Part shown: positions 4,451-46,463 of the stretch, in pieces | Position numbering within the stretch: the first letter of the stretch is position 1 | Layout: each line of letters begins with the position of its first letter | Position numbers and translations under genes: made by a program | Assembly (NCBI GenBank): GCA_973895155.1 | Contig: OZ316893.1 | Location: 26,834,798 to 26,898,797 of the forward strand | DNA from: Marsupella aquatica | Lineage: Eukaryota; Plantae; Marchantiophyta | Direction: 5' to 3' | Length of the DNA: 64,000 nucleotides | Notes under the pieces: model-generated | Databases searched by the model: none | Seen by the model: the letters and a program-made list of their open reading frames with translations, nothing else | What the model was told of the DNA's origin: nothing

Positions 4451-5590
4451 TCCTTTGTTTCTTCAATCTTCCACTTCAAAATGATGGGCACCTACCCAAC
4501 AACCGTCACAACAACACAGGTCTACGATGAATTCCCTCCTGTCCCAATACTTTGGTACTGGAGTCACTCATTGCCTCCAGTAGCAGCAGCTGACGAGCAA
4601 AACGTACAACATCTGATAAAAAAATTCAATTTTCTAGGAGATTCTCTCGAACTCAAAGCGAACGCAGTCCTCTACGCTGGAAGTGTATCTCGAGGTTTGC
4701 CCAGATGGTCTTGTTTCTCGGAGCCTCTCTCCGGCAGCAGGCGGAAGGACGGATTCAGAAGACACGCCCACCTCCCTTGCCCACGCTTCCTCCCAGTGAA
4801 CATACACAGTCAAGTCCTCCACTTCGCTCCGCTACTGCCTGTCTTTTCTTGTCTTCGTAACAAAGCCCTTTAGATCCAGTGCTTTCACCGTAATCCAGCT
4901 CCTCAACCTCTTGACATGAAAATCAAGCCATCGAAGTGTACATACTGACTGGACCACGTCCAATCATGGTCCGAACATTCCTCTGTTAGTCTGTTTCCTT
5001 CATGATTCCGTGGTAACTGTTGGATTCTCCTTGCCGTGCTGCCGTATGTGTGTCTGTGTACCAAACCCCTCTCCCTAATGAATGAATCATGCCATCATGA
5101 ATCATTAATTTTCACAACCCACCTTGCCCCCTTCCTCTCTCTCTGTTAGAAAATTATACCTCCAGACTCCTACAATCCTGGGCCACTACCGCTGCTTCTG
5201 GGCCCTTCTCCTCTCCTCTCGCGTTCTCTAATTGAGTGAGCCTCAGCCTACCTTGCCACCTTCCTCATCCTCTCTCCCTATCCCGCTCTGAGATACGCTC
5301 TCCGGCCTCATCGTCCAATTATAGATCATTACTGGCTGCTTTTGGGCTCTTCTGCTCTTCTGCTCTCCTCTCGAATCTCTAATAACTCTTGACTAAGCCT
5401 CAACACACGCCTATTTTGTCGCTCTGATGGATTGTGACTTCCCACCTTGCCGGCGATTCGTCGCACGCCAAGAGCCTCTCGACGGCAGGAGCAGTGTCAC
5501 TGTTCTGGCTATCCGGCAATCCGGCAGTCAATCTTTGAATGTGAATTGCGAGAAATCGATGAACGCTTTGCAGTACAAGTCAAACCACTG

Positions 5591-9632: not shown

Positions 9633-10213
9633 CATTGAAAGATCATTGCAAGTTGATTCGAAGCTATTTTGAAGCTTGCTGTATTGCAGAGTTGATCCAT
9701 GGTAGCTTGGATTGTTGAGATCTTGCTGGTTGATTTGTGGTAGCTCAAGTCAGATCAGCCGTTGGTAGATTGGAGATTGTGAGCTATTGATTGCTCTGAG
9801 AGTACAACTTGGTGCTGTTTGAAGCTCTCTGATAGTTTGTTCATTGAAGTCCTCTCTGGAGTTGATTACCGGATTGACATTTGGAGCTTCTCGAAGCTAT
9901 GGCAATGAGGGACTGATCAAAGATCAGAAGGCACCTCAAGTGGTAGTTGCTACATTGTGTTTTTGGAGTTCTAGTCCTTATTGATTGCGTTGCAGCATCG
10001 CAAAGGCTATTGCGGATTTGAGATTCGTTGATGGATTGTACACTTTTACGAAGAAAGTGACAATCAAATGTTGGTGAATTGCGTTGTCGGCGTCACGATG
10101 GAGTCCGCGTTGCGACGAGGTGCGGCGACGACCTAGGGCACAAGGAAAATGACAATATTGTTGAACAGTGTTTTGGTCCGAGAATTGCGGCATGTTTTGT
10201 GGCACGCCTTGTT

Positions 10214-10643
10214 TTGGACTGGGATCATCCGAGTCCAATTGTGGGTTGTCTCTTGAGACTTCATTTTGACTCAAAGTTGGATTTGGATTGGGATCATCCG
10301 AGTCCAATCGTGGGCCTCACTTTGACTCAAAGTTGAATTTGGACTGGGATCATCCCAATCCAACTATACATTGGTAATTTTGGACCCCATTTGGACTTGA
10401 AGTTGAAGTTGGACTGGGATCATCCCAATCCAACAGTACATTGACAACGTTAGAGACTTGATTTTGGGCGAAGGTGAATTTGGATTGGGATCATCCCAGT
10501 CCAACTGTATGTTGGCGTGTCCAGAGACCTCATCTGGACCTAAAAGTGGATTTGGATTAGGATCAACCCAATCCAACTGTATCTTGGCGACTTCACCTGT
10601 GTAGAGGACGTGAAGGACTTGGACTGGGATCATCCCACTCCAA
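10214..10643. repeat. Array of seven 25-bp palindromes TTGGAYTGGGAT-C-ATCCCARTCCAA in the retroelement leader
   Basis: Copies start at 10214, 10283, 10339, 10409, 10480, 10552 and 10619 (period 56-72 bp). Confidence 0.92.
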
Positions 10644-11123
10644 CTTGTGGACCGGGCGTCCGGATGACTATTGAATGGATTTGAATTGGAGGCTCACCCC
10701 GACGTAGCAAAGTGTGGCGGGTGTGAAGGGCTCCCTCAGGCTCATCTCGGCGTTTCAAGGTGACTCATGACGAGGGGCGTGAGGGCGAAACAAGAGCCAG
10801 ACCGGAGCGGGCCGCAAGGTAGCTTGCTGGTACGTGAGGAGTAGTTGACAATTGGGTGGTGGTTTGGAGTGCCTAAGTTGGTGCATAACTTCAAGGGGGA
10901 GGTCATCCATCCCAAAGCTATTCCTCATGCGCGTGCTTAACCATGGGGTTCTTATGGCATGTAGTGTACCCACAAGCTTTCACAACTTGTTGTCTAAGTT
11001 AAAGGGCCAAGGGGCTTTATACACTTATTAGTTTGTCTAGAGACCTGTTTTGAACCAAATCAGAAGCTACTTAGAGGTTTTTGATACTTCTGAATCCATC
11101 TAGATGCATAGATTGGATCAATT

Positions 11124-11844
11124 TTGCATGGATTCTTAGCTACAACCTTGGGGCATTGTGAAGTCTATTATGAAGGTGATGGTAATGATTCAGGGCAGAT
11201 TTGTCATCACGGATTCTTTGGGTGCTACGGGACTGTCCGAGGGACAGAGGACTGTTTCACTCGAAGTGGGGTGCCGTTTCGGCCAACAACATTGATAGCA
11301 ATTGCAAGTGCAGCTTCAGATAGTGATTCTGACGAGGGCTCTATGACTAGTTCTCCTTGTCATCAGGTGATTGCACCTTTGTTGTGGGATATGGAAGAGA
11401 TGTACGGGGCTACAAAGGGCCCACGATGATACTCTGGTGCAGTTGGCATGATTGATCTGGATGACTTCATCCAAGAGTTTGATACGTGGTGCGATATGCA
11501 GTCATTACGTAATGCCACGTTGTTTACCTCTTTCATGGCATGGAAGGGATTATTTCAGCATTTAGAGGGGCCACCCATGGATGACTACCATGAGTTTTGG
11601 AAGGCTCATTTGGTTTAGATTAAGGCATGGAGGCAGCATTGGTCGCCTAATTATGTGTCCATCACCTATGGCACTAGAGCGGCTGCCCAACCCATTGCTA
11701 CAACTATTGCTTCTTCTAGCAGCACTAGCCAGAGTGGCACACCATCTACCAGTACCACTCCAACAACATCCATCGCTACTCCTACCGGTGTGATTGTGAT
11801 AGGGGTTGGAGTTGCGCCAACATTTAATCCCGTGGTGGAGTTCT
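11124..11844 (+). pseudogene. gag: gag 5' part, with in-frame stops, cut by CACTA-1
   Basis: One frame runs through ..IDLDDFIQEFDTWCDMQ..AWKGLFQHLEG..PTFNPVVEF. Removing CACTA-1 plus one TCT rejoins it in frame to FEVLKQNYQG at 25775. Confidence 0.75.
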
Positions 11845-14541
11845 CACTAGAAGAAACCGGCCCTATCTGAGACCCTCCCTTACATGACTTACTTGAGACC
11901 TTTGGAAATTAGTGACTCCAAGGTTATTGGTGTCATCTTTGTTACACCTTCTCAACTAAGTTTTGGTGAATTTTTGGAGAGTCATATCTATAACTATTTG
12001 GAGTGTTGCAATTGTAACTTAGTGTAGGCAATTATTTTGAAGTTTTATAAGTGACTCAGCACAATTATAATAGCGCTTTCTGCCATATTTATCACCATGG
12101 TTGCACATATATAAGAACAATATAACTTTGGCTCTTATTAAATAATAATGCCGACCCACATCCCAAATCCAACCCATACATATATACTTTATATGTATGA
12201 TTGACAAAATGATTATAGGTATATGTACCGGAGGTCGGTGCAATTGCAAGTCGTGCACCATGATGCAGGCCACTGGTTACTCCATCATACAAAGAGAAAG
12301 ACACACACTGAACCCACTAACATCATTTGGCAGCATTCTGTCTCCAAATATACCCCTTGGCCAATTTCAAATGGTTGCAACTCCCTTCATCTAGGAATAT
12401 TGAACAGCCCAATATTAGGGACTCTTTTTGTTAAGGGTACAATGCAATGCCTTTGCCGCAAGACCACTTCTACCTACTCTTCCTTGTAATGCGTGTTGCC
12501 CTCAATTGGCTTCATGAACCCCTTCACCTAATGGACCATGCCACAAGTTTCCACGTGTTACATGGTAATGCCTTTGCCCATTGACTGTTTTTCCCAAACC
12601 CCTTGTGCCAAAACCCTTGGGAGAAACGACGAGTGCCTTCGCGCGCACAGAGTGTCGGCATTTGGCGAGCGAGAAGGAAGAGCCGAACATCGTCAGGCTT
12701 GGGCCCTAGGTTTCCTGAGTGAATCCTATCGAGCTTCTTTGAGTGTCTTGTCTCCGCTGTGCGCTTGCAGTCAAAGGCTTGGATTCTCGCTACTATTGGG
12801 AGCTCGGGGTTGGAATGAGGGTTGAGTGATTGGCATTTTGTTGGTAGTGGAAGGAGCTGTGGGTTTAGGAGGCTGCTTATTGCAAGCACAAAACATTGCA
12901 GCGGTGACATTGCTAGGTTTTGCTACTGTGCTGAGTGAGGTTGAGGCTGGGTCCAGAGTTTACAAAGGTTGTCGGGAGGTTTATCGCGGATGACTGGCGA
13001 TTGGTGAGGCCTATTTGCATTCATCTCCACTATCATTGGGTACCCGAGATACAACGATCGACCTTCTATACAGAGGCGAGGAAGTGACGAGAACCTACAA
13101 CTCTTTGCGGGAATGCGTGGTCTTCTGCTTACCTGATTGCCCTCATGCTTGACTGTAAATACATTAGTAAAGTTTTGCTTTGGCTCAACTTTGGTCTTTT
13201 TTGGCCTTGCGTGACTGCGCTCACTTCTCTCGGTTTCCAGTGTGCAGTTGGCTAAAGACCTGGATGTCATGCTGTGAGTGCAAGCTGCTAGTAGTTGTCC
13301 ATAGCTTGGGGAAAGCGGTGGGGACTGAGGCCACAAAGGAGTTTGACCTGCGCTTTTTTTTCTTTGCAGCAAGAGCGAGAGTGAGACGAGTTACAAATTG
13401 AGTTTCATTGAGCTGCTGCCCTGGGCTTGGCGGAGGTCCTACACTCTTGTGTCGCTCACTTGTTCAGCTGCGGTGGGAGCGGGCTTTTGGTAGTGACCTG
13501 TTCAGTTGCAGTGGGAGCTGACAACTTTGGTGGTTGTGGTGTTGAGCTTCTGAGGAGGGCAAGCAACTGCGTGATGTGCCCTTGAGTGAATGTCTCTTGG
13601 AGGAGCTGCGAAGTGGTGAAAGGGGAAGGAGGTGAGCTCGGGCCTGGAAGCCATGTGCTTCTCCAACATTTTTGCACAATGCAATGCTGCTCAATCATTT
13701 ATCCTTCCTCTAAAGCTGAGTGTGACGCATCGACCTTTGACGGGAGTATCTGCATTACAGTTTGCTACATACGGCTGCTCTCTGTGTGGCAATCGCCAAT
13801 AGCTAGCGCAATGGAGGGTTCGACGTCAACTTTGAGTCATTGATCAGTGCACACTACATCGCTCTCCCTTTGCTAAACCCTTTCTTTTGGCTTGGTTCTT
13901 GGTGCCTTTGGCATAGGAGCGACGTTATTGCTAATCAACTCCCGAATCAACTTTGGAGGTGCGGGTTAGAAGGGGTTGGAGAGAGGAGGTCCAAACCGAG
14001 AATGCCCTTCACCGTCAACGGTTTCTACTAGTCCCGGCCATGCAGCTGAAAGTGCGCTTCTTTCAGGTGTCGTAGCATTCTGCCAGCCGGGTGCTTGGAC
14101 TGCAGAGAAGAGCAGCCACAGTCATTCAGTTCTTCTCCTAGCTCAGCTGCGCATTGTCAACCATCGAGCGCTGCTGCGCGCTAGCTGTGAACCCCAAGAG
14201 GAGCTGCGACAAGGAGGAGATGCAACCAAGAGGAGATGCGACGAAGAGGAGATGCAACCAAGAGAAGCTGCTGCATCCCACATTGAGTTGGACATTGAGG
14301 TAGGGACGTGAGCTACGCACTTTCAACCATCAAGCAACCACCAAGCTCGGCAGCGCTCTGGGATTTGTTGGCCACAGCAGACAAAGCGGAAGACAAAGGT
14401 GAGTGTTCGTGCACCGTTAGAGTAACCGCAAGTACTCTATTACATGCCTCGTTGTTCTCTATTACATGCCTTGTTCTCCCGCCCACTGTTTCCTGCGATT
14501 TTCTTTCTTCCATAAGAGAATGGTGATTTCTTCTTCTATCA

Positions 14542-14797
14542 CTTGATCTTTGAATCATGGAACTGCTTGGTACTTTCTCGCTTGCACAGAGAGACAGGGA
14601 CTGTCGTAGTCTTCATGATCTGGATGCAAGGGAACCGAACTCTATGACAAGAAGCCATCTCATCATACATCTGCTCTGCAGATCCGTTTCTTGTGGTATC
14701 ACAATATTCCTTGTACATGTTGTGATAACCTGTATGACTCTGATACGTGGACCCAGATACCGAAGTTCTTAATTGTGGTGGGCTTCTTTTCGAAGAT
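14542..14797 (-). pseudogene. RPL18a: Captured exon of 60S ribosomal protein L18a
   Basis: [15 protein letters not shown] (frameshift) [56 protein letters not shown], preceded by acceptor CTACCAG|ATC. The ORF track labels 14539..14820 as +, but that peptide reads from the minus strand. Confidence 0.9.
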
Positions 14798-15806
14798 CTG
14801 GTAGACACATTATTCAGCATTTGCTAACTTCGAAACTAGAAGGGTAACACATTAAACAACAGAGAAACTCACAACATCCTCCTTTGGTCCTTCAGAGTCT
14901 GTACTTTGATTCTGAAGTTTGACTGAGTTTTTGTTTACTAAAAGAATGTGACTGTGTAAGAGTTCCGTTTGGCAGTGGATTGGTTGAAGCACTTCATGCT
15001 AGTGTGTTGTCCACAGCTCTTCAACCAGCTTTCGTCTTCCTTGTCTTTCACCACTTATGATGACATCAATTCAGCTAAGACCATAGAAGGTTCCAAAGCA
15101 TCTAACTTGTAAAATCGCATTCTGTTACATCAAGGACTAAGGTGTTGGGTGCCAAAGGAGACAGCACAACAAACACGCTGAAAAGACTTCAGGACTGGGT
15201 TCAACAAGGTAGTGAAGGTGCTTAGAGCCATAGTAAGTATGCATTCTGTATCTTTCTCTGTTGATGTGAGCTTGTGCATAATGGGAGTTGTAGTTGGCAA
15301 GAGTTCCAAATATGAATAGATCCAGAAGTATGTGATCATGTACTTGCTCTATAAAGTTTCTGAAGATATAAGCATTTTCTGTTAGACCAGGCAACTTGGG
15401 AGTTGGTAAGTGTCACCTGCATCTGAGGGGCTACACCGGGGCATAAATGGAGGTTCACTTGCACAACACGACAACCAGTGAATTTTCTCTCTGCTGCAAC
15501 CTGCAAGGTGAGACTTTCGGTCTTTCTGGATGAAAAAACAGGAGTTTAATATGATTGATATACATGTCCGTCGAGAATATGGGTTTATCACCAAGCTCTT
15601 TGTCTTAGGAAACTCATAAACTCAGAATCAAATATGTACTATGCACGTTTCATGCTATGTGTATACTATGACCTGTAGTTGGAACCAAGACAATGAGTGG
15701 GAACTGATTAGTTTAGGTGGTTGCTGTTGGCGAGGCAAGTCGACCTCCTGCTCACCTTGCTCATCAAAGGACGTGAACAGAGGACATCACAACGAAAGCA
15801 ACACTT

Positions 15807-16256
15807 ATGGTGAGGACCCGCAACGCTGAACATGTGCGACTTGCACGCAAGGCAGAGATGTTGCGCCTTGAGTATGTCAGACTTGGGATCCTTCCAGCCC
15901 AGTCTGCATGGTACTTTGAGTACCCTGTTGTTTCCAGGAACAACTACAGCCGGCCTCTACCTGCTTCAGTACCCTTCCCGACATCCTTGGTATTTGTGTC
16001 TCTTGTACATGACCCGCCACAAATTAGGTTCCAAGGGTGTGTACACAGTTGCCAATATGACTGTCCTGCCTGTAGGGCTTCTGGCCCAGAATTGGATGAC
16101 CGTTCTCTTGGATGCCGATTTTTGCACAGAGCACAATGTATCATCTGGAACCACTCGCCATCCTGCAGTGTGCCTGGTGATGTCACTTGTCTTGCCCTCC
16201 CAGACCCCACCACCGGTGACTTTGGTGTCTACACATGTTTGGATCACATGCTCTAG
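15807..16256 (+). CDS. Cys/His-rich hypothetical protein (149 aa) inside CACTA-1
   Basis: ATG-initiated open frame co-oriented with the other cargo ORFs. It has a CVHSC..DCPAC..GCRFLHRAQC..H..C pattern; no family recognised. Confidence 0.4.
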   Translation: MVRTRNAEHVRLARKAEMLRLEYVRLGILPAQSAWYFEYPVVSRNNYSRPLPASVPFPTSLVFVSLVHDPPQIRFQGCVHSCQYDCPACRASGPELDDRSLGCRFLHRAQCIIWNHSPSCSVPGDVTCLALPDPTTGDFGVYTCLDHML

Positions 16257-16954
16257 AGGACCACTTGTCACACCGCATGCACAGACCAGATACCATTGAC
16301 CTATAGCTTAACACTCTGACTTCAACACAGAGGATATTTACTTAAAATTTTGATGTATGAGCAATTTTGGGTCCAGGGTTTAGGGTCAACAGTACATAAC
16401 TTATATCCTATTATGCCTGCACTAAGCAAAATATCCTAATTTAAGAGGCTAGCAAACTCGCATAAAAGTCTCTATTGAAAGACTGCTTTCATGACTGCTT
16501 TAACCTGGTGAACATTGCAACGTTGAATGAATTAATGGGCCATGTGATAATATGCAAAATGATTTATGCCTCACTTATTTGTCTCAGCCACTATCATAAC
16601 CTATTTAGGATGTATAAATTTCAACCCTTATGACACTGCTTCATACCAATCCTCTTCGAAGAATGCCTGTTTTACATGTCACGACTATTGTATGTGATTC
16701 AAATGCATGAAATGTTGTTGCAGATCTCCTTTGGTGAATCATAGCCACAATTAAAATTGAAGTGTTGGTGGAGAAATTGTATTAGGGGATCAGTTTTGTG
16801 TGTGGGCTCAACATACCAAAAGTATGTGTGCTCTGCATCCTTGTGTGGCCATTCCAATTCATTGCAGTAGCAAATGCCTTTGTACCTTAAATGCTAAATA
16901 TATTTTACTTTCTGTGCAGTCTGCTAAATTGTAGAGTCTATCTCATGCGCAGGC

Positions 16955-17635
16955 ATGGCACGGCCTAAAATTCAAGCCAAAAAGCGTGTGACAGAGGTGA
17001 GAAACACAGGTGTACTTGGGGTAGATGCTACTAACTTCTCTGCAAGTCAGATTTTCCAGAAGGCAGCTCATTGTTGTGCCATTTGTGACGATGGTGGGGG
17101 CCTGGTCATTTGTGAGGGCCCTTGCATGAGGCATTTCCACCTCAACCCGGAGTCTGACCTTGCTGCAGAAAACAACTGTCCAGGGGTGGGCCTCCCGTCA
17201 ACACACCAGGGAGACTGGATGTGCACTGATTGTTTGGAGAAGCAGGCTAAGTGTGCACAGTGTGGGAAGTTGGGGTCCTATGAGGGCTCTGTTGATGCTG
17301 CAGCAAATGTTAGGAAATGTCCAGACCGTTTTTGTGTGAGATTTTTCTGTTTTGAGTGTTTGCCTGCTCATGCCACAGCTTGCCCACTTCATAGGTGCAA
17401 GGCATGTGGTGAGCATGATGATGACTACTGGACTGACATAGTCCACTGTGCTAGGTGTCCCACTATGTGGCACTATCATTGCCTGAAAGATCATCAAGCA
17501 GAGGGTTATGCTTGTGACAGAGAAATCTATGATCACTCTGCACATGGTGTTGATCGATGGATATTTTATTGTCATCGCCATGCCATTGATCCTACCTCGC
17601 GCACTCCTGTGAGAGATCACATATCTTGGCTGTGA
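16955..17635 (+). CDS. Stand-alone EDM2-like multi-PHD-finger protein (226 aa), CACTA cargo
   Basis: CAICDDGG.L..CEGPCMRHFH, C..C.KLGS, CPLHRC..C, CARCP..WH..CL and IFYC..H.ID....TPVRDHI follow the order of the EDM2/NSD-type PHD cassette. The frame is intact. Confidence 0.82.
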   Translation: MARPKIQAKKRVTEVRNTGVLGVDATNFSASQIFQKAAHCCAICDDGGGLVICEGPCMRHFHLNPESDLAAENNCPGVGLPSTHQGDWMCTDCLEKQAKCAQCGKLGSYEGSVDAAANVRKCPDRFCVRFFCFECLPAHATACPLHRCKACGEHDDDYWTDIVHCARCPTMWHYHCLKDHQAEGYACDREIYDHSAHGVDRWIFYCHRHAIDPTSRTPVRDHISWL

Positions 17636-18221
17636 AGCTGAACATTGTACATGCACAGTGCACCTGATGTGGATGTACTATTTTTTGAGATTGCAGAGAT
17701 TCCAATTTTGAAAAGGAGTTGGGTAGGCGAGTTTATATAGGCAGCACTTATCTTGTGCTCTGGCGTCAGTGGCTGGGTACATGCCTATACAAACTTATCC
17801 TTACAAGCCTTCTTGGAAGTATTTAGGCTGAGTGGTCATTTTCATAAACACTTTCATCAGACTGCTAAATTAAAACAGGACTTCTAAGTTGTAAGCGTAT
17901 AAATTATCAGGCATGCAATTAATCAAATTGCCCTATAAGTTTGTCATTGAATGTATCCTCCTTTACAACAAAATATGTATGTGCCATGACAAGTTGGTTG
18001 CACTTCATTTCACCACGGATATGGATTTTGTAGTATATATTCAAACAATGTCCTGCATCCGTGCAGGTGCCTAGTACGTATTGTTCACATATCCCTTGTA
18101 CCTATCAAAATCGGACCTGAGCACCAGTGGGCCAGATCAACTCAAAAAGCAGGAATTTTGTTGTCCTTGTATTGTCAGGTGAACCCATTCTTCCAAAATT
18201 CACTGTCATCACGTAGAGTGT

Positions 18222-19100
18222 GTGTACATGGAGCCTGGTAAACGTAGAAAGTGTGACCACCCAGCAGTGTTTATAGGGGTCAGAGCGATTTTGGTCCATG
18301 GCCAGCATGGGTTGACCAAAGTGCATTGGCCAACTGTACAGAAACGATTCTCTGAGCTCCATGGCACTGTAGTTCAGGACATCACTCCAGAGACTACACA
18401 TGTTGTTGCAGGGACATGGCTATCAGTGATAAAGAAGTGGTCATGGTCCTACATGAATTCTGCAATTACTAAGCAAGGCCTAAAAGCAGTTGAGGCCTCT
18501 TGGATCACAGATTCCATAGCACATAAGATTGTACAGGATACTGAGCAATATGAGTTGTGGGAGGATGAAGAAGCTTCTGCATCAGCTTGGGCTGAACAAG
18601 AAGTCTGGGAAGCAAAGGCACGGCTTGCTGATCTCCAATATGGACCTGTACTCAACAAAGGACAGAGCTCTACAAGGCTGAAGTGTATGTTGGCTGAGGA
18701 GACGAAGCAACCAACCCCCATTCTGAAAGTGCTGAGCATGGTATTTGTGGAGGCGGGAATTGGAGAGGTTAAGTGCAAAGTGTACAAGTCCACAGTGCTT
18801 GACCTAGGTGGGACAGTGGAGGAGAATATAACAGAGGACACCACTCATCTCATTACTAAGTCATATCCCAAAGCCTGCCGCAAGTTTGGGAAGGGAGACA
18901 TTCGCTTTTATGTCATGTCCCATAATGTGTTTGTGGTTTCATATGCTTGGCTTGTGGAATCAGTAGCAGCTGGGAAGCGTCAAAACCCAATGGACTATGA
19001 TCTTTTTGAGGCCTGGCCACGGAAGGGTCAGGATCCTTACAGAGAGGACTATGAGACAACAAGTGAGGAATGGGTCATTAGCGATTCTGAATCAGAGTGA
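18222..19100 (+). CDS. Double-BRCT-domain protein (~291 aa), CACTA cargo
   Basis: Two repeats: LHGTVVQDITPETTHVV..WITDSI..QYEL and LGGTVEENITEDTTHLI..WLVESV..DYDL. Intact frame with an acidic tail. Confidence 0.82.
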   Translation: MYMEPGKRRKCDHPAVFIGVRAILVHGQHGLTKVHWPTVQKRFSELHGTVVQDITPETTHVVAGTWLSVIKKWSWSYMNSAITKQGLKAVEASWITDSIAHKIVQDTEQYELWEDEEASASAWAEQEVWEAKARLADLQYGPVLNKGQSSTRLKCMLAEETKQPTPILKVLSMVFVEAGIGEVKCKVYKSTVLDLGGTVEENITEDTTHLITKSYPKACRKFGKGDIRFYVMSHNVFVVSYAWLVESVAAGKRQNPMDYDLFEAWPRKGQDPYREDYETTSEEWVISDSESE

Positions 19101-19533
19101 GGAGTAGTAGCATCAGTTTGGATACAAGTTTTTTTGTATAAATCAGATCATTGAAATAAATGTGATCTTTGAACTAATGTAACTTGTTATGGTTGGTGGC
19201 AGTTGGGCTTATTTTACTGTTGGCGGATTGTTGTTTCCTGCTGCCTGGGGGTGTCACTGTAAACGTACATGCAGAGGCGGTACATTTGAGGACAGCGGAG
19301 GAGGTGGTGACACCCTCCAACATTTAGGAATTTTGTGTCATTCACTTGACAATAGGTACACTACTTGCGAACCTGTTTTTTTCTTTTGGGGTGGTTTAGG
19401 GTTTGTGAGAATTTAGTACACGTTATGTTAACTCTTTTGGCAGATACAATCAGGGATATATGGAACACAAATACCACCATTAGGCATCCTTGTTCACTGC
19501 TGTCCATGACTGCAGAGCTCCCAGCCTGTTACA

Positions 19534-22500
19534 ATGCACCCTGGTCACCACCCTCCCCAGACCCAGCCCAAGGCACAGGCACTGCCTTTGCATCATCCCA
19601 CAAGGATATCACGCCATGATAATAAGCTTTGGCAGCGTGAAAGGTTACGAACCAGACTTTCAGGAGCCAGTAGGATGAGATGTCCTTGTGCAATCTGCCA
19701 AGGATCCCGTACCAGGGGTCTGAATGAGGTTTGGCGGCATATCGCGGTTCATGGAAGAGATCCACGACATCGAGTTTGGAATGATCCTGCAAAGGAAGAT
19801 TCTTCCGACGAGGAGTGGAGGTTAGAATTTGATGCTGCCAATGCTGCAAGACGGGCAAGTGAGGTTCTGCCTGGTGCATTTGAAAATGTTGTAGCTGGTC
19901 TCTGTGGGTTGTCAGCTCTCCAACGGGATGGTGCTCAGGCAGCACCACGTGACGAAGGAATTCATGTGGAAGAGATGGTGAGAGACATCTTCCAAGACTT
20001 GGATGCATTTCATGATGGGCTGGACAATGAAGAGGATACGGCTGCAGATGCAAGTGTGCCCCCTGTCGAAGAGCCTCTTGATGAGTTTGAGATAGGGCAG
20101 GAAACCCCTGGGCATGATGGGATGTTTGGCTCTCCCCTGCAAATACAGGAAGGCAGGAAGTCTTTGTACCCCGGTAGCAAATGTTCTAAACTGGGATTTG
20201 TCATCATGTTCCTGAACATTTGCGGCAACCACAATGTCCCCAACATTTTGGTTTCTGAGTTGTTGGCATTCTTGCGAACAACTGTGCTACCAGATGGTAA
20301 TATTTTGCCCAAGAACATGTACGAGGCAAAAAGATGCATATCTAATCTTGGATTGAACTATGATTCGATCCATGCCTGTCCTGATGGGCATGTTCTTTTC
20401 ATAAAGGAGTATAAAGAATTGTTGACATGCCCTAAGTGTGGGAAGCACAGGTATCGAAACTCAGGAAAGTCTATGGTTCCCGCCAAGGTACTTCGTCATT
20501 TTCCACTCATTCCCAGACTTCAGCGGATGTTCAGAAGCCGTGCCATCTCGGAGATGATGACTTGGGCAACTGACAAGAAAAGTGATGATGGGCTACAACG
20601 ACATGCTGCAGATTCAAGGCAATGGAAACTCATAGATGAGATGTATCCCGAATTTGCTACTGAGCCGAGGAATGTCAGACTTGGGCTATCATTGGATGGG
20701 GTAAACCCATTTGGAGACAAGAACAACAAATTTTCGTGCTGGCCTGTAACTATTTTGAATTATAACCTTCCTCCTTGGATGACTACAAAGCGATTTTTTG
20801 TTCTGATGGTCCTACTGATACCAGGGCCAGACAATGCTGTATCTGCCAACATAGATGTGTTTCTGGCTCCCCTAGTGGAGGAATTGAGAAAGCTTTGGGA
20901 GGAAGGAGTTCTCACATATGATGTCCTACAGAGGCTTGGGAGGTTAAACCCATTCATCCTTAGAGCCATTGTCATTCTGACTATAGCTGACTACCCAGCC
21001 CATGGGATGATATCAGGCCAAACAACAAAAGGATATTGTGCTTGTACTATCTGTGGGCGCAATGTCACCAGTGAGTACTCCAGAGCCCTGCAGAAAGTGA
21101 TATACATGGGCCATCGTCGTTTTCTGAAGGCAGATCACCCTTATAGAGAAAGACAGGCACTGATTGCACACTTTGGCAATGAGATTGAGCAACGTGGACC
21201 CCCGGCACGAGTGACCAAAGAGGAGATCAGGCAGTGGGGAGCACTGAGGGATGACTATATCAAACGAGGGGGCAGGGAAGATGGAGTGAGTGATCCAATA
21301 AAGCGATATGGTGTAAAAAGACTGAGCATATTGGACTTGGAGCTCAAGTACTGGAGGGTAAGCCTCTTGGAGTTGATGCTAATTGGGATACATGTTTTGG
21401 TTCAGAGCATGTGCATTCATTTCGAAGAGAGAGACTAAACTTGAGGCATTTCCTGACGCTTTTGCATTGCAACGATGCAGGAGTTTGAGCCAAGCAAACA
21501 TAACATTGATGTTATGCACATTGAAAAGAATATTTGTGAGAGTCTACTCAGATTCTTGTGTGGAGAGAAAGACACTGGTTCAGTGAGATTGGATCTTGAA
21601 CAGAGGGGAATGAAACCCCATCTTTGGTTGAGGCCACATGCCCACAGAGCTGATGTGCTCTTGAAGTACCAAGCGCCCTATGTTCTGACAGACACAGAGT
21701 GGGAACTATTTGTGCAGAGGTTGAGTTCTTTGAAGGTTCCTTCAAACTATGGCAGTGCTTTCAAGAAGCATATCATGACTAGAAAGCTTGGTAGTATGAA
21801 AAGCCATGACTACCATATGTTGATGCAATAGGTGTTGCCTTTATGCCTGAGGGGCCTGTTGCAAAAGCCTGTTCGTACTGTGATCATGCGACTCAGTGAT
21901 GTGTTTCGTCGTATTTGTGTGAAGGTTTGGGATGAAACACACTTCCCACAACTGACAGAAGATGTCGCTCAGGTGCTGTGTGACCTGGAGATTTATTTTC
22001 CTCCCGCATTTTTTGATGTCATGACCCACCTACTTGTCCATGTTGTGGAAGAGCTACACCAATTTGGGCCTGTGAGTGCTCGTTGGTTGTACCCTTTGGA
22101 ACGGTACATGAAGTTACTCAAAGGTCACGTGAGAACATATTACAAACCTGAAGCAAGCATGGCTAAAGGTTACATCAAGGATGAGACTCTGGGATTTCTG
22201 ACCGAATACATAGCACAATATGAGCATGTGAAGACCAGGGTGTGGAATTCTGATGAGGAGGAAGGGGTGATAGGTGAAGTACTGGAAGGGGCTGCAACCA
22301 CAAAGAACTTGACCATATCTATGAGAGACTTGGCACATGACTTTGTATTGCACAACACTGTGGTGATGGAACCCTGGATACAGTGAGTGCATACATGTGC
22401 TATAATCCAGTTCATGATCTTAAATGTTGTGTTCGTGTGGTTTTCTCCTTCAGCCTGTTCATGTTTACCCAAGCTAATGCTGTGTGGTTGTTCGTTCAGG

Positions 22501-23265
22501 GAGTATGAGTCATTGAAGGCGGCCCATCCCACTGCAGGAACAACTTTTCCAGGTTTCATGGAGTGGATCAGAGTGGCAATTAGAGAGCATCACGAGACCC
22601 ACCCAAACATGGATGCAGATGTTTACCTACTGTCTAATGCCCCTAGCCTGAAAGTGAAGACTTACAAACGGATGAGAGCATATGGGAATCACTTCCGAGT
22701 GAAGGATGGTGACAGTGCCTACAGGGTGACGAATGACTGCGGGCTCATCACTGTATTTGAGTAACAGAGCCACAATCACGACAGGGCCTGGATGGAGATG
22801 GGATATGTGGGAGAATTAGTTGACATATGGGCTCTGGACTATGGGGCGGTGTCCAGTCCTGTGATTCTTATGAAAGGTTCATGGGTGCGGCAGGATTGGC
22901 TTGGTAACAGGGCTACCATGAAGAGAGACAACGACGGTTTCTTGCTGGCCAATTTCAGAGGGAAATTGCCCGAATGGTCTGAGCCATTTGTGTTTCCTAG
23001 TCAGGTGGAGCAAGCTTTCTTCCTGGATGTGGAAGACTCCCCAGGTTGGCGTGTAGTGTGTCATAAACAGGCCAGGCAACGTCGGATGGAAGGATCAAAC
23101 CTTGAGTTTCATTTACACTCTCATAGTGCCTTTGATCGTCGGCGTTCAGACCAAGTGCCTGTAGTTCATGATAGCGGGGACTTCATTCCTGTGACAAGGG
23201 TAGATGCATTTGCTGAAGGAGGCGAATTCAGAGATGCAGATGCCAACAGTGTGCCTGTGCCATGA
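19534..23265 (+). pseudogene. CACTA-1 TnpD-type transposase (transposase-associated domain, Transposase_21, DUF4218, DUF4216)
   Basis: Motifs RCPCAIC, IHACPDG, LRHFPLIPRLQR, RNVRLGLSLDGVNPF, DVMHIEKN, KSHDYH, WLYPLERYM and EPFVFPSQVEQAF. Introns at 21358-21480 and 22383-22499. Premature stops at 21829 and 22762. Confidence 0.93.
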
Positions 23266-23420
23266 GTAATGTGAATTGTTTGCATGGACATTAGTGAGGG
23301 GAAGGATGTGTAATAAAGTAATTCTGAAGCAACACAGATGTATGGATGGATGCCTGGTGATTGTGGTTGCATTGTGTTATACGGGGTGACCATAGATGAC
23401 ATGTTTTTGTGGTCCAGTAG

Positions 23421-24916
23421 GATGGAACAGAGTGACACAGAGATGTGTGAGTATGAAAGGAAAGCTATGGAACAACGAGCATACGTGAAAGCCAAAATCG
23501 CAGAACTGGATCTGGAAAAGGATGTGGCTGAATTGTAAGGGAACGATTCTCAACTACACCCCTCCGCTGAGTTTGTGTGACATGAATAGTTCAATGTGGC
23601 ACTAAAATTGTGACTGTATTCTCATATTGGAATGTCGCAGAGCCACAACATTTTCAAAGAAACAAAAGGAGTACGCAAGAAGGGTGACCAGCACTATCTC
23701 TGGGCCTGTGCGTCGGAGTGACAGGTTGAGCAAGAAGGTCGTACCTACAATGGCAGAATGTGGAGATGACATTGATGCTGCACAGGTGGGTGCAGACACT
23801 AGACAAGAAGATGCAGATGATGAGTATTTTCCAGAGGAAATGGATGAGGATGGGGTTATGAAGATGAATACATTGCAGAGCAGCCCCAAAAGAAACATGT
23901 AAGTAGTTTTCCCAACAAGGTTTTGAGTTAAAAACTCTTGTTTAGAGGTTTCATATGTTCAGTACTACACATATGTACCTTGCTTAGTTCCTGACATTGT
24001 AGTTGGTGATGTGATGCAGCGTCCTGCCAGTTCTGTTTTGCCTTTGAAGCCTGTGCATGCACCATACCAGCAGGGGGGGCTGACCTCTGATCAAGGTTGT
24101 CCATAGAGAATGTCCATAGAGAATAAGACAGGTGCTACAGAGAAGAAGTATGAGAACCTGGCAAATACTCGCTGTAATTTAGAGGCAACAAAGTTGCAGT
24201 CTGTACAAGCAACTTGTTTGACAGAGGGCAGTCAACCATGTTTGGATGAGGATGACATTGGCAAGGGAGTGGATGATATCAATGTTGGGGCAAATGAGGA
24301 TATCAGCAAGCATGACAATGATACCATTGAGCCAGATTCATGCTATGTAGATCTTGACTCCATTGCAGAGATAAATGATTTGCAGAATGTATCATTCTCA
24401 ATGACAGGTGTGCCTCTTGTTGAGATAAATCCAACCAAAGAGTTAGTTGGTATGACACTCCCAGGTGATGAACCTGCTACTGTGACAGTCCTAACAGAGG
24501 AACCTACTGAGCCTAGCTTCACTACTGTGAAGAGAGGAAGCATGCGCACACGAAGCAAGTCTGCTGGTGGGAGCAGAGCCACGTCAAAGGTTTCATACAA
24601 ACCTCCAAGAACAGTGCTGGCAGAAAGATCTAAGGTGGAAGTGGGGAAAGCACCTAATGCTGAGGGACAAAGTGGCTTGTTAGCTGTTGATGAGAGTGGA
24701 ACACGAGTAGGATTTGCCAGAGTGCAGGTTGGTTCCACAACGTTCCATGGCAAGAGGATTCCCCCAGGTTATTCAGTAGTGTTAGTCACATTACTAGTGA
24801 AACCTAAAGCTGTCCTTCCCATTCCAAACACAAATGATGATCCTCCTCAAAAGACACTTGGAGATGCTGCAGGTTCTTTGGTATTATGGCCAAGCAAGTT
24901 CATAGAGGATCCATAA
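23421..24916 (+). CDS. Spliced CACTA accessory (TNP1/TnpA-like) gene
   Basis: The N-terminal exon has EYERKAMEQR..KIAEL. The C-terminal VG.A.V....FHG..IPPGYSVVLV..L..P.A.LPIP....TLGDAAG..VLWP motif resembles the TNP1/En/Spm C-terminal domain. Probable exons ~23421-23535, 23641-23898 and 24020-24916. Confidence 0.65.
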
Positions 24917-25774
24917 CAATGTCATGCCATTATTTGTTTGTAGTGTGAGTCATGTTATGTAGATTTTAGATGTCAAGAAGCAGTACAAGAATCATGTCCT
25001 CTTGGAGATTCATAGTATCATGCATGTGCTTTCAGTTATCTCATCCTACAGTCATCAATTATGAGTTCCTGTTTTGTCTAAATTACATTGATCACATTGT
25101 AAACTATTCCATTGGAATTCAAATGATCTTCATTTTTTAGCAAGATTGTGATTGTGTTTAATTCTTATGAATGTTTTATGTAGGATCTGCTTATATGATG
25201 CTTTGTTTCATGTGGATGTCATTCATGTTATGTTCATTTCTTGTATTCAATGTGTTATATTTCTAAAGTTAGAACATCAGGTTTCTATGTATTGTAATGT
25301 CGAGTGCTCTCTCTCCTTATGAACTGTCCCTCTGTGTTCATTAGTCATGGTTATAACTTGCATGTGAACCTTATTAGTTATAAACATGAGTATATAGAGT
25401 CCCAAATGGTTCTGTTGTGTAACGTGGGCCAGGGTCTCCATTGGTCTCTCCTGTGACACTAAATAGTCACACGCTAGTCGTTGTTGAATGCGGGTAAGTC
25501 ATGTATGTGACTTACAATGTGACTCGCTGAAGTCATATTGCAGTCACGTCGAAACAAGGCTAGACTCCACAATAAAGTCACAGATCAGTCACAAATGGGT
25601 ATCAAGCAAGTTGCAAAGCCCAGTATCAATAGTGACTTCCATTTTTTGGTCTCAACTTTTGCAACTCCAAGGGTCACAGCGTGGGTCAAGTCACGTTGAG
25701 TCACAATGAAGTCACATGAGCCAAAATGAGTCATATATTGCGGTCTCAGTTCACCTCGGATTCTTCTAGTGTCT

Positions 25775-26460: not shown

Positions 26461-27974
26461 GGGAGGTGATATTGCTCCTGCTATGACCACAAATCCTAAG
26501 GATACTAAGATTGCTCAATTGGAGCAATAACTAGCTACTATGGCTAGTTCTCAGGTGAGACCTGCTTCTGGTGATGGGGCTTCTACATCCTATGGGGCTT
26601 CCACATCTTATGGGGCTGATGGAGATCTTGCCACTATGGGATTCATGTGTGGCATTGCACACATTGATGCATCAACAACTTTGACGCGTGGGGCAGCAAA
26701 AGCTCTTGAGCCTTGAGGAGCAGTAGTGGAGCTAGATCCATAGAGGGGGGATGCACATTGGCAGACAAAGCTTCCTCATTCTTTTACATTGGCAGAGACA
26801 GTTCAGACTGCCTCTATGAACCCGGTTCAGACAAACCCTAGTGTGGGTCAGTTGGCAGAATCAGGTAGTGATGCAGCGGGGATGACAGGTACCTTGCTGG
26901 GGGCGGCTACTACCATAGTGCGCACCCCATTATTTTCAGCGACAGACATGCTGAACTTGGGAGTTGGTCCAGCTAATGTGTTTAGATTGGCAATCACATT
27001 ATGCGAGGATACTCCAGTTTTGGCTTCTCGTGCAGAGGCAGCATGCAGTTCTAGAGCAGAAAAGTTGACACCGCCTACTACAACTAGTGAGACATGGCAT
27101 GCAGCAATGGCAAAGTTGATGGATTTGCCAGCACGCCCTGCATTTGAGAGGACTAGGTTTAAACCTAGCGTTGTGTCATTGGATAATCGGAGTGGTATCT
27201 TCCGATTAGTTGGGCCTACTGGAGCCATATACCAGCTAGAGAGAGTGTTACTGGATACTGGTGCTCAGCCCTTGATGTTGGGTAAGTCTGCGGTACGAGG
27301 ATTGGCATTGCGTCCAGACGATCTGGAGGAGTGTCCCTTTCCTATTTAGACTTCATTGGGGGGACTTACACCCACACAACACATCACCAGATGACCATTT
27401 GAATTGAGGATTCAGGAGGGTCATGCCAAGGATAGCTCCCACATACAGGCGCAAGCTATTTTGACTAAGGCAGAGTCCTATGATGTGTTGGTGGGATGTA
27501 CAGTGTTGTACCCCATGGGATTTATTCTTGATTTTTGGGATGAATCAGTGTCATATAAACCTGATTGGCAATCAGGAGATGCCAGATTGAGCAGATTGCC
27601 AGTACAATTTAGTGGACCTGTGGGAGGCCCTAAACCTACACTATTGTCTTTGGCAGCCTTCAGTGGTGTGATCACTGATCCTGATGATTTGATGGAGGGT
27701 AATGCACATGCAATAGATGTTCCATCAGTGGAGGAGTCACATGAGGAGTAGATGGTGCGAAGGAGCAATGTGGATTGGGATGATCCCAATCCAACTAGTG
27801 TTGTGCCACCAGTATGGGGTACTGCACTGGCCTTGCCATAGAGGGCAGCACAATTGGTACATGATGCATGGCGTCATGCTTTTACACCACAATCAGGAGC
27901 AGAGCAGTCTCCTACAAGTGGGCCAGTGACTCTTTCACCATTGGATACCACTCCTATTGCATGGCAGTATCCAC

Positions 27975-28925
27975 TAGAGGGTATTTGTTTGTTGGATCTA
28001 TTTGGTGGGATTAGCATTGGATTGGCTGCTATTCTTCAGGCAGGAATTCCTATGCGTCGCTACTTGTATGTGGAGACAGATGAGACAACACGAAGAGTCT
28101 CATTGCGCCATGTGGCTATGTTGGTGGACCATTATCCACAGTTGTTGCCAGTGGATGTTGTTCGTGGCTATCAGCATGCACTGCCTGCTGATATTTCACT
28201 GTTGGGGGCGGATCATTTGGATCGTGTTGGCCCTATTGATTTGGTGATTGTTGGTTGGCCATGTCAAGGCCAATCTAGAGCTAGAGTTGGACATGGACTT
28301 CATGATCCACGCTTTGCATTGTTTTGGGAGATGTTACAGGTATTGCGTCATCTCCAGTTCCATCAAACACATTCCCCTGCCTACATTTTGGAGAATGTGC
28401 CACTATTGGATGATGAGCGTCATCGACTTGTTGCTAATGTTCATCAGGTCAGATCTTGGATTGGACCTGCTGTGTTATTGGATGCTGCACGTGTGGGTTC
28501 TCATGCACATCGTCCACGCTTGTGGTGGACTAATTTGTTACCTTGTGAAGTGTTGAAGCGAGCATTTGATAGCATTCCTTGCTCAACATCCTTGGTGGTG
28601 GATGATATTTTGGATCCAGGGCGTTGTGCACAACATGTGATCCAGTCTGACAGACCTCCATTGGCAGTGGTCAATATAGTTGGTCGCCCGCGTTGTGCAT
28701 TACCCACTTTTGTGAGCCATTCTGCTTCACATGCATTTAGAGTAGGTGGGCCTGGACTTGTGTGGGATACAGCTCTACAGCAGTTAGTGGAGCCTATTGC
28801 TGATGAAAGAGAGTGTGCTATGGGATTTTTGATAGGCACTACTGCAATTGCGTTGGTGTCAAAGAGTTCTCGCCGCCAGGTCCTTGGTCAAGCCATGGAT
28901 TTGAATTGCTTGACTTGGATTATCA
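27975..28925 (+). CDS. C5 cytosine DNA methyltransferase domain within pol
   Basis: Motif I LDLFGGI, II YVE.D, IV GWPCQG, VI ENV, VIII RPRLWWTN, IX ERE.AMGF..GTT, X RRQVLGQAMD. Same reading frame as protease and RT. Confidence 0.92.
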
Positions 28926-31900
28926 GCTTGGGAGTAGCTGAACAGTTGCGGATGTGCTCTGCTGGTGTTACTGATCGTCCATCAGTGAGCTTGCGGTTCA
29001 CTGAGACAGTGATGACCACAGTTGGGGGCGAGCAGACAGTCCATGGACCTATGGCAGGATTGGCCAAGGCTGGACAGATTGTTGAGCAGGAAGGGACTGC
29101 TCAATCTACTACTAAATAGCAATCATCGGCTATCTCTTCTACCCTACAAAAAGATATTAGGGATCTGGTGGAGAGTTGGGAGCCATAGATTGGTCCTAAG
29201 TTAACAGGGGAGGAAAGACGTCGCATGCATCAATTCCTGAAGAGTTACTGGAATTGTTTTGCATTCAACATGAAGGATTTGGGGACATTGAAGGGCCTTG
29301 GTATTCAGATTGAATTGGCTAGTGATGCGTCAATCTTTTGTAGACCATATCGTTATAGTGACATGGAGAGAGCTCTAATTCAGAGCAAAACTCAGGATTT
29401 GTTGGAGGCTAGTTTGGTGGAGATCTCATACGGGGAGTATGCATCTGCCATAGTGATGCCAGCCAAGAAGGATGTGCATGGTGATTACACAGATAGGCGA
29501 ATGTGTGATGATTACCGACCTATTAATCGTCAGACAAAATCTGATTGATATGCCATGCCCACACCTGAGGAGATCTTTGATGCAGTGGGGCATGCAAAGG
29601 TTTTTAGTTCATTGGATCCGAGGGCAGGGTACCATCAGCTTCCAATTAGACATTCTGACAGGTCCAAGACAACATTCTGGGGAATTGATTCTTATGGCAA
29701 GGATCGTTTGTATCAGTGGTTGTTCTTACCATTTGGGTTGAAGAATGCACCAGCTGAGTTTCAGAGAGTCATGGATCGAATCCTTGCAGGTTTGGATTTT
29801 GTCAGATGTTATATTGATGATATTTTGGTTTATTCTTCTACTGTGGAAGAACATCAACGACACTTGCAGATTGTGTTTGAGAGATTGAGGGAACATGGAT
29901 TGAAGCTCCATCCCGGCAAGTGTAAGTTCTTCCAAGAATAGATTGAGTATTTGGGCCACACTATATACCCAGGGGGATTGGGTGTACAACAGACTAAAGT
30001 GGAGGCCATTACACAGATTCCTCGTCCTACTGATGTGAGTAGAGTTCGTGCATTCTTGGGATTGGCGAGCTACTATAGGAGGTATGTTAAAGGATTTAGC
30101 CAGCTTGCTAAACCTTTAACCATACTTACTAAATTGGATCAGGAATGGATTTGGGGTGATCATCAGGAGCATGCCTTTCAGGAGTTGAAAGAAAGATTGG
30201 CATCATCCCCTATTTTGAGAAGACCCATTTCAGGGAGACCATTTTAGCTACACACTGATTTGAGTGGAGTAGGACTTGGCGTAGTGCTGACTCAGAAAGA
30301 TGATGTAGGACATGAGTTTGTTGCACGGCATATGCCAATAGATCAAACAATTCAGTAGAGGCTAAGTATAGCTCTTATGAGGGAGAGTGTTTGGCAGCAG
30401 TGTGGGCTGTGGCACACTTCCGCTGTTACTTGTTTGGTAATCCTTTCACTTTGATCACTGATCATCAGCCTCTCAAGTGGTTAATGGAGTCTGACAAGCT
30501 TACTGGGAAGCTTGCAAGATGGGTGTTGTTGTTGTAGGAATATGATTTCCAGGTTGTACATAGACCTGGAAAAATGAACTTGGATGCGGATGGATTGAGC
30601 CGCAACCCATGTACCAGTCAGCAGGATGAGACCGGAGCCAGATGGCATGATGAGTCAGATAAGGAGATGGTGCCAGGATGGCATGCATCTGCCTTCCTTT
30701 GTTGGGTTCGAGCATGCAGTGGATCTGTGGATTCTACTTCATTGGATGAAATAGATGATGAGTCTTCAGATGTGTATGTAACTTCTGGACAGCAAGATAT
30801 TCACAATGATGTGAGAGTGTTGGAATATTTGCGCAGTGGTTCTATTGTTGGTAGTGTTGATGCCAAGGAACGTGATAGGGTTCTACAGAGAGCCAAGAGG
30901 TTTCGATGGGAAGGAAACCATCTTTTGAGAGTACTACATGATGAAAAGGTATTGGTGGTACCAAAACCATCACAACGAGTACATTTGGTGCGACATGCGC
31001 ACGAGGAGTTGGGTCACTTTGGTGTGAAGCGCACTTACAATTTGTTGCAGACACAGTATTGGTGGCGTGGTATGCACACTCATGTCCAGCAACTGATAGT
31101 TAAGTGTGGTATGTGATTGAGTGAGGGCATCATTTAATGTTCCCACTCCCCAGTTGCATCAATTGCCAATCATGGGTTTGGGGTACAGATTGAGTTTGGA
31201 CTTTGCTGGTCCATTGCCTCTCACCCAACGACATAACCGTTATGTTTTGGTTATGGTGGAGCACTTCTCCAAGTGGATTGAACTAGTGGCATTGCCAGAT
31301 AAAGCTAGTGGAGGAGTGGCTACCACATTTATGGATCGAGTACTCAGTCACTTTGGAGCACCAGCTGAGGTGTTGACTGATCAGGGCACGGAATTCCGTG
31401 GAGATTTGAGGGTTTGTGTGAGCAAGCTCTGATTGACCATTGTACTACTTCTCGCAATCATCCTGAGGCAGATGGATTGGCAGAGAGAGTTGTACAAACT
31501 GTGAAGAGAGGATTGCGCAAGTATGGCTTGCAGGTTGGTCATTTGGGAGACTGGGATCTCCAACTACCTTGGTTAGCTATGGGCTACCGTTTCAGTCGAT
31601 AAGCATCACTTGCATCCTTCTCACCCTATTTCTTGCTATATGGTAGAGAGCCGGATTTGCCAGCGGCTATTCGTGTGATGTTGCAACTATTGTGGATTTG
31701 GATGATCCAGATATTTGGGTAAAGGTTTGTTCAGAGAGGGCACGCGTTTTTGAGAAAGTCATGCCCATGGCCTTTGACAACCTTGCTATTGCCCAGCATC
31801 GTGATACTTTGCAGTATGCTACTATTCATGGAGGAGGTTATCGCACGAGGATTAGGAGATTCTCATCCTGGTGATTATGTTTATTTGCAGCAGACAACAC

Positions 31901-32092
31901 CAACAACGCTTGATGTGACCGCAGGGCGGACAATCTTGCGTGTGCGTGAAGTGTTGCCTTCTGGAGTCCTTATGTTGGAAGGGCGTGATGGTATGGTTTG
32001 GAAGGATCATGTGCGTAATTGTGCACCATGTCACCTTCCAAACATTGATGGCACTGTGGATCCAAGCTTGGCACATGTACGTGCTAGCTTGA

Positions 32093-32232
32093 AGTGTATG
32101 TTGTGTGGGTCTGCTCAGGAAGCAGCTACTATGTTGATTTGTGATAGGTGTTCTAGAGGATGGCACATATCGTGTTTGGCACCACCCTTGCACATGATTC
32201 CTAGCGGATCATGGTTTTGTCCTCAATGTTGG
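32093..32232 (+). CDS. PHD finger at the integrase C-terminus
   Basis: CMLC..MLICDRC..GWHISCL.PPL..IP.GSWFCPQC (C4HC3). Confidence 0.92.
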
Positions 32233-32399
32233 TGATGCCGACTAGTTATCATTTGTGTTCTTATGGAAGATATAGATTGCAGGTAGGTGATCGATGGGGC
32301 TCACTTGCACTCGGCCTCCTGATCTTCGCACCTAAAAAGGTGTATATTAACCTTGTAGGACTCATGGCTAGCTAGAGTTAGGGGACCTCACTCCCAGCT

Positions 32400-38169: not shown

Positions 38170-38297
38170 TAGTATGTTGGACTTACATGCATGTAAATCT
38201 TACATTGAATTAATGAGATTCATGATGATTTATATATATATATTGATGATTGTAATGAGATTAATGTTAATGAGATTGCATTGATGTTGTATGATAG

Positions 38298-46431: not shown

Positions 46432-46463
46432 CGAGCTTGAAAGGACTGAAGGGGGTGGGAATT

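Follow-up and report, generated by a model that had tools for sequence, protein, structure and literature searches.

The 64,000-nt stretch of Marsupella aquatica DNA analysed here (contig OZ316893.1, positions 26,834,798 to 26,898,797; hereafter the window) raises the question of why a transposon should encode PHD fingers of the type found in the host protein EDM2. An initial annotation had described an intact 226-aa ORF with its own ATG and a basic N-terminus, carried by a CACTA element, and had interpreted it as a captured, diverged EDM2-like reader module that could act as an anti-silencing factor or decoy. Translation of the region confirmed a stop-free, Cys/His-rich frame of 226 codons running from ATG to TGA, with the basic N-terminus as described. 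A wrong-frame artefact was rejected, as the opposite strand contains a stop and no such motif.

The ORF was shown to reside within a 13,927-bp element (11845-25771), which is inserted into the gag-like region of a Gypsy. Its inverted termini starting with CACTA, its 3-bp target-site duplication and its Tnp2 transposase place it among the CACTA/En-Spm elements (Table 1). A joint representing the empty site (11841 to 25772, with three shared letters) was identified in public contigs of runs X1, X3 and X5, in agreement with the terminal inverted repeats and the TCT on both sides, and the carriage of the ORF by a CACTA element was thereby upheld. The possibility that the ORF is a nearby host gene instead of cargo was rejected, because it sits between the terminal inverted repeats. 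The coding regions of the element follow each other in one orientation, namely the 149-aa ORF, the PHD ORF, the ORF with two BRCT stretches, Tnp2 and a further coding region, which we take to be possibly TnpA-like. The 149-aa ORF returned neither a Pfam match nor a usable Atlas match, and the two-BRCT ORF, positioned between the PHD ORF and the transposase, displayed only weak PDB matches (BRCA1, Rad4 and Rtt107). The window copy is probably disabled, because its transposase contains two in-frame stops, at 21829 and 22762; a base at 23851 is also missing from this copy and present in others. Short repeats were observed around 25450-25740, by eye only.

Table 1. Features of the CACTA element and of its PHD-cassette ORF (window coordinates)
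Feature	Position	Strand	Remarks
Left target-site duplication TCT, within Gypsy gag-like region	11842..11844	.	
Left terminal inverted repeat, starts CACTA	11845..11874	+	30 nt, 77% complementary, first 11 nt perfect
Predicted 5' splice donor of non-coding leader exon	14399..14404	+	Consensus match by eye
149-aa Cys/His-containing accessory ORF	15807..16256	+	Well covered in all four runs
Stand-alone EDM2-type PHD cassette ORF, 226 aa	16955..17635	+	
Basic N-terminal motif A-R-x-K-x-x-A-x-K	16958..16984	+	Conserved, H3-like spacing
PHD1 / PHD / variant-PHD core plus EDM2-specific closing segment	17069..17629	+	Purifying selection among copies
Accessory ORF with two BRCT stretches	18228..19100	+	Pfam BRCT E 1.6e-11
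Tnp2/TnpD transposase gene	19534..23265	+	Transposase_21 E 2e-70, DUF4218 1.5e-28, DUF4216 4e-5; introns judged by eye
Downstream coding region	23400..24916	+	Without Pfam match
Right terminal inverted repeat, ends TAGTG	25742..25771	-	
Right target-site duplication TCT	25772..25774	.	

Chromatin-related modules were also encountered in the neighbouring elements. A second CACTA element (32522-42291), with inverted ends (the right one bearing a terminal mismatch), a duplicated TTG and its own Tnp2 transposase, encodes a 242-aa SET-domain ORF (37441-38166; Pfam SET E 5e-6). The Gypsy element hosting both CACTA elements encodes, at 27842-29116 and 31723-32235, a C5 DNA methyltransferase-like ORF (E 1e-8) before the reverse transcriptase and a canonical PHD finger (E 1e-11) after the integrase. 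The SET-bearing CACTA and the methyltransferase- and PHD-bearing Gypsy suggest a repeated capture of chromatin modules by the elements of a little-studied plant lineage. The 5' region of this Gypsy comprises, at 10213-10650, an array of approximately seven near-palindromic units with a spacing of 70 nt, and another unit is present in the pol region, at 27769-27801. The window further contains a LINE-like element (44162-50393; DUF4283, zinc knuckle, endonuclease, reverse transcriptase and zf-RVT) and a host-like gene with MSP and ankyrin repeats (2184-4462, minus strand).

The 226-aa protein starts with a basic decapeptide and ends in TPVRDHI-SWL. The initial statement that it ends exactly after TPVRDHI is therefore accurate to within three residues, SWL preceding the stop, and it is this longer end that is conserved in the family described below. 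Pfam analysis returned three NSD-type PHD models, in order and all under their curated cut-offs. The AlphaFold model based on a 21-row alignment exhibited a mean pLDDT of 80.8, with values of 77-95 for residues 31-220, while residues 1-26 were disordered and undocked; a predicted complex of residues 2-31 with residues 30-226, for which no alignment was used, scored 0.07, a value that speaks neither for nor against docking. The first AlphaFold model (pLDDT 64.5) gave no Foldseek match at E 0.001. The second matched PZP domains and pieces of NSD PHD-C5HCH, in each case at a low TM-score over the whole chain, and no solved structure spanning the cassette was thus found.

To which PHD proteins the cassette is related was assessed by profile comparison, phylogeny and HMMER searches, all of which identified it as EDM2-like and not as an unrelated PHD. 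Alignment of the family profile with a grass EDM2-type cassette (L001) by hhalign yielded a value of 3e-27 over 179 columns, reaching the closing motif, whereas alignment with an insect NSD protein yielded 1e-7 over 127 columns and stopped before the EDM2-specific end. NSD as the nearest family was rejected on account of this weaker match, which lacks the closing segment. The HMMER ranks directly following the family were, where looked up, occupied by EDM2-type proteins, i.e. Selaginella EDM2 and hypothetical proteins of Marchantia, Riccia, Calypogeia, Diphasiastrum and Ceratopteris. The resemblance to the PHD region of NSD1/2/3 consists in the sub-threshold matches of the ORF to NSD-type Pfam models, with NSD2 and NSD3 being the best solved-structure matches by sequence, but NSD proteins combine their PHD array with SET and PWWP domains, both of which are absent from the transposon ORF.

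EDM2 is reported to comprise 2.5 atypical PHD repeats, acidic domains and a methyltransferase-like domain (PMC7529245). The transposon ORF, with an identity to EDM2 of 27-32%, shares with EDM2 and EDM2-like proteins (Selaginella XP_002976689.2, Zizania P0007, Marchantia Mp2g00350 and Mp1g03210) the atypical PHD cassette and the closing H-x-I-D...T-P-x-R-D-H-I. It differs from EDM2 in lacking the RFD domain, the C-terminal methyltransferase-like region and the acidic run; RFD, acidic regions and a methyltransferase-like domain were found neither in the 226-aa ORF nor in its neighbours. Within the cassette, a His is changed to Cys in the second finger and a 20-residue helical insertion is missing, and the ORF represents a single coding exon within a transposon, with an extra basic motif. 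Judged by its sequence, the PHD ORF is thus an EDM2-type cassette only and falls outside the EDM2 family proper. The stand-alone form by itself is not unique, because PHD-only EDM2-like proteins, likewise consisting of a stand-alone cassette with a basic N-terminal part, are present in grasses (L002-L007 and P0019) and in Marchantia (Mp4g03050, P0059). These proteins group with host EDM2 lineages, outside the family clade. The Marchantia protein, which is 280 aa in length and groups with liverwort paralogs, nonetheless carries the basic motif of the family.

Relatives of the PHD ORF were retrieved by a word-index search (15 proteins of 148-304 aa, unnamed save for one 'hypothetical protein') and by a full HMMER search of 1.84 billion representatives (13 more members, whole or partial). 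At least 25 short relatives, with identities down to 37%, were thereby identified, and nine of the 16 sequences comprising the window protein and the word-index relatives stop exactly at SW followed by L or I. The family forms one old clade of same-sized proteins on a long stem (support 97/100, 14 of 20 rows), a grouping also obtained in a second, quick tree (SH-aLRT 98, 11 of 36 rows). It falls inside the EDM2-type group without branching from within any of its seed-plant, fern, lycophyte or liverwort lineages, and in the quick tree it belongs to a basal polytomy. Descent from the grass PHD-only genes was rejected by this placement. A transposon context is demonstrated for the window's own family and presumed for the relatives, some of which may be host genes. 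Run X7, which derives from another organism, contained deep contigs coding for a diverged PHD cassette (84-749), compared with 4-11 for near-identical pieces of the element, a contrast that fits a second multi-copy family. No family member was found in JGI metagenomes, where 11 loci represented seven EDM2-type transcripts and four unrelated PHDs; no family locus was detected in the viral contigs scanned, and the prokaryote genomes scanned gave a single weak match (L012).

Single near-identical contigs covering the element body exhibited word depths of 1,554-1,782 (X1) and 3,058-4,166 (X3), compared with ~13-40 for one-off contigs. The element family is read as having many copies because of this difference, although depth does not equal copy number. 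Selection was estimated from variants in the collapsed contigs of four runs, using sites with a share of at least 25%. In the PHD ORF, 38 such sites were found (16 synonymous and 22 non-synonymous), with no stops and no indels. Across the whole ORF the pN/pS ratio was 0.37-0.50, and in core codons 39-226 it was 0.33-0.36 (p 0.004-0.009), values that derive from a small sample of 38 sites and are not independent of subfamily structure. Codons 1-38 as a whole appeared neutral (pN/pS ~1.0), and within codons 1-12 only two changes were observed, both synonymous and both falling in the N-terminal motif. The sole Cys or His altered among the variant sites was the unconserved H180. The best-supported 12 of 108 indels over the element were all located outside the PHD ORF, and six lay no more than ~70 nt from one end or the other. 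The comparison of copies proposed in the initial annotation, performed here as pN/pS, hence revealed purifying selection in the core, and a copy-specific neutral capture was not borne out. The window copy itself is young, differing from the five closest X1 contigs at 11 of 3,246 bases.

Compared with other EDM2/NSD-type proteins, the region preceding PHD1 has lost its acidic character. Position -3 relative to the first Cys is Asp or Glu in 96 of 114 other EDM2/NSD-type matches, and 24 of 26 family members possess Pro or Ala followed by His where the others carry an acidic residue before PHD1; the 20 preceding positions contain a mean of 2.3 acidic residues in the family versus 8.2 in the others. 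In AIRE, D297, two residues before the first Cys, is reported to bind H3K4, and D312 to bind H3R2 (PMC2261226). According to the alignment, the equivalent of D297 is His in the family, and the acid equivalent to D312 is kept (E54 in the window protein, Asp in relatives). H3K9-methylated peptides have been described to pull down EDM2 (PMC6208443), but reading of H3K9me2 by the family cassette is not to be assumed, because the acidic run and the acid before PHD1 are gone. The specificity of EDM2 may therefore not carry over to the family cassette, and the acidic loss before PHD1 may amount to a loss of histone binding.

A further feature absent from the initial annotation, as was the loss of the EDM2 acidic run, is a conserved N-terminal motif with the spacing of the histone H3 tail. 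This tail carries Ala, Arg or Lys at positions 1, 2, 4, 7 and 9, and the window protein, counted after Met, matches at all five positions (Ala1, Arg2, Lys4, Ala7 and Lys9). All five matches were retained in 0.03% of shuffles of the first 12 residues, or in 0.8% when the first two were kept fixed. At least four matches were found in the window PHD protein alone among 3,169 Met-started 12-mers from the window and 12 loci, a weak control in that most of these 12-mers do not begin at a true start. The pattern R-x-K-x-x-[A/S]-x-[K/R], which was noticed after the fact, is present in 16 of 26 family members versus one of 109 other EDM2/NSD-type proteins (Marchantia Mp4g03050), 24 of the 133 control proteins having been left out as they were not located. 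It occurs in 11 of the 16 members used to define it and in five of 10 later members (eight of 10 for a shorter form). Ala directly follows Met in 10 of the first 15 members, and in one subfamily 6-10 residues separate the motif from the start. Unlike in H3, a hydrophobic residue is preferred at position 5 and Lys at position 6, and Arg precedes the last Lys in only a few members. A 14-column motif profile, probably too short for HMMER, gave no PDB match with E values as high as 10. Short H3-like lysine motifs in non-histone chromatin proteins are known from the histone mimics G9a, ATF7IP and SETDB1 (bioRxiv 10.1101/2025.10.22.683908). Those are ARKS-type K9 motifs of animal host proteins, whereas the putative mimic described here exhibits H3-like spacing over positions 1-9 and is carried by a plant transposon.

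With regard to transcript structure, the ATG of the PHD ORF is located 2 nt past an AG splice-acceptor-like site (16952), and such a site shortly precedes the ATG of each ORF of the element. Together with donor-like sites at 14398 and 15507, this suggests that a single leader is spliced to alternative ORFs. No in-frame ATG in the PHD frame is present upstream of the first of these donors. Upstream of the donor-like site at 15507, an open in-frame ATG is located at 15447, and a spliced PHD form of ~21 additional residues starting there is possible. The initial description of the ORF as intronless consequently holds for the coding stretch, while the mRNA probably contains spliced leader exons. 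The 5' part of the element (11984-14403) is far shallower than the body in all runs, which suggests subfamilies differing in their 5' regions or promoters.

In our preferred reading, to which we give a probability of about 45%, the gene is a long-standing accessory of the CACTA element. Its product, likely a small nuclear zinc-finger protein, would bind chromatin or chromatin factors to the element's advantage, acting as an adaptor or as a decoy against silencing by the host. The PHD ORF would be expressed through alternative splicing, from a shared 5' leader to the acceptor before each ORF. The trimmed cassette would still engage the H3 tail or the nucleosome, with a specificity shifted from that of EDM2, a protein described as forming a complex with IBM2 and AIPP1 that acts on intragenic TEs in heterochromatin (PMC10241880). 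Devoid of the EDM2 effector domains, it could compete with or redirect the host EDM2 pathway and H3K4/H3K9 enzymes, the tail serving as possible bait, and the outcome would be better full-length transcription into the transposase, which sits behind three other ORFs. The effect of EDM2 on TEs is reported to go in both directions (PMC3632883 and PMC7529245), so an EDM2 decoy need not benefit a TE. Of the earlier interpretation as a whole, the EDM2-type, CACTA-carried, diverged and non-neutral nature of the ORF was retained, and H3K9me2 reading and anti-silencing stay hypothetical. A more elaborate version, in which an old plant CACTA lineage employs a two-part decoy composed of a captured EDM2 reader and an H3-tail mimic baiting host H3K4/H3K9 writers and readers, is considered doubtful, though not negligible.

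The disappearance of the acidic run and the Asp ahead of PHD1, with His at the AIRE H3K4-binding Asp position, would suit a non-histone scaffold, i.e. a cassette that has lost histone reading and binds the element's own products, with the basic motif as a nuclear localisation or nucleic-acid-binding signal. The Lys at position 6 and the hydrophobic residue at position 5, the frequent location of the motif away from the very N-terminus and its occurrence in the Marchantia PHD-only protein P0059 are in line with such a role. We regard it as unlikely, however, given that the acid matching the H3R2-binding D312 of AIRE is retained, and that the R2-K4-A7-K9 spacing is fixed down to 37% identity, which is probably tighter than a localisation signal requires and is attained in ~1% of shuffles. 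A targeting or tethering subunit of transposition, in which the cassette steers the transposase to a type of chromatin (e.g. other repeats) and the BRCT protein provides a link to DNA repair, is likewise judged improbable. Chromatin-reading modules after the Gypsy integrase steer insertion, the Gypsy element invaded by both CACTA elements of the window has a PHD there, and the PHD ORF, BRCT ORF and transposase adjoin in one orientation; yet with repeats as abundant as in this window two insertions do not amount to a bias, and the role does not need an H3-like tail.

Stronger reservations apply to a host-serving gene, that is, an EDM2 paralog, domesticated or carried as a passenger, that the element has multiplied. 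Annotated PHD-only EDM2-like genes do exist in grasses and Marchantia, one of them with the N-terminal motif, but their products fall outside the family clade, and the gene rides on a high-depth element family with conserved ends, the diverged PHD contigs of X7 being deep too, all of which renders this quite improbable. A neutral Pack-CACTA-type capture of an EDM2 fragment, kept intact by the youth of the element, would accord with the few differences of the window copy and with the capture of host DNA known for Pack-CACTA elements (PMC13317346). It is nevertheless very improbable in light of the low identity to EDM2, the long stem branch, the synonymous excess, the absence of high-share disruption and the conservation of start and stop over a deep clade.

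The adaptor or decoy preferred here would resemble VANC of VANDAL elements and TnpA of Spm in being an accessory protein encoded by a DNA transposon. VANC binds sequence-specifically to tandem motifs in its own elements, and TnpA, which activates Spm, likewise targets the DNA of its own elements in a sequence-specific manner (PMC10398659). VANC probably arose via capture of a host chromatin regulator (PMC13547354), and TnpA is described as derived from a transposase (bioRxiv 10.64898/2026.08.24.746577). The PHD protein, with its putative anti-silencing role, differs from both in its predicted histone-reader fold. No VANC-type domain was found in the 226-aa ORF by Pfam, NSD-type PHD models alone being matched, and no sequence-specific DNA-binding part is visible in the protein. 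The VANC comparison drawn in the initial annotation consequently applies as a functional analogy only, with nothing pointing to sequence-specific binding, and the gene, as part of a CACTA element, may resemble VANC in its working as a captured accessory factor, along a different route. Global anti-silencing has been argued to be rare in TEs because it is harmful to the host (PMC10398659).

No report of a CACTA element with EDM2-type PHD cargo or with a PHD finger and BRCT, or of histone mimicry encoded by a plant transposon, was found in the searchable literature, which covered few subscription papers and did not extend to Repbase. If the two-part decoy were true, it would amount to histone mimicry encoded by a transposon and to a way of countering silencing that, unlike those of VANC and TnpA, is not sequence-specific, in elements that also carry BRCT and SET modules. 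As the PHD protein is small and soluble, it is open to direct testing. The plant anti-silencing factors VANC, TnpA and MuDR-type transposases are described as sequence-specific; a transposon that carries a conserved copy of the host's own heterochromatin reader would be following another strategy, with the EDM2 pathway as its target.
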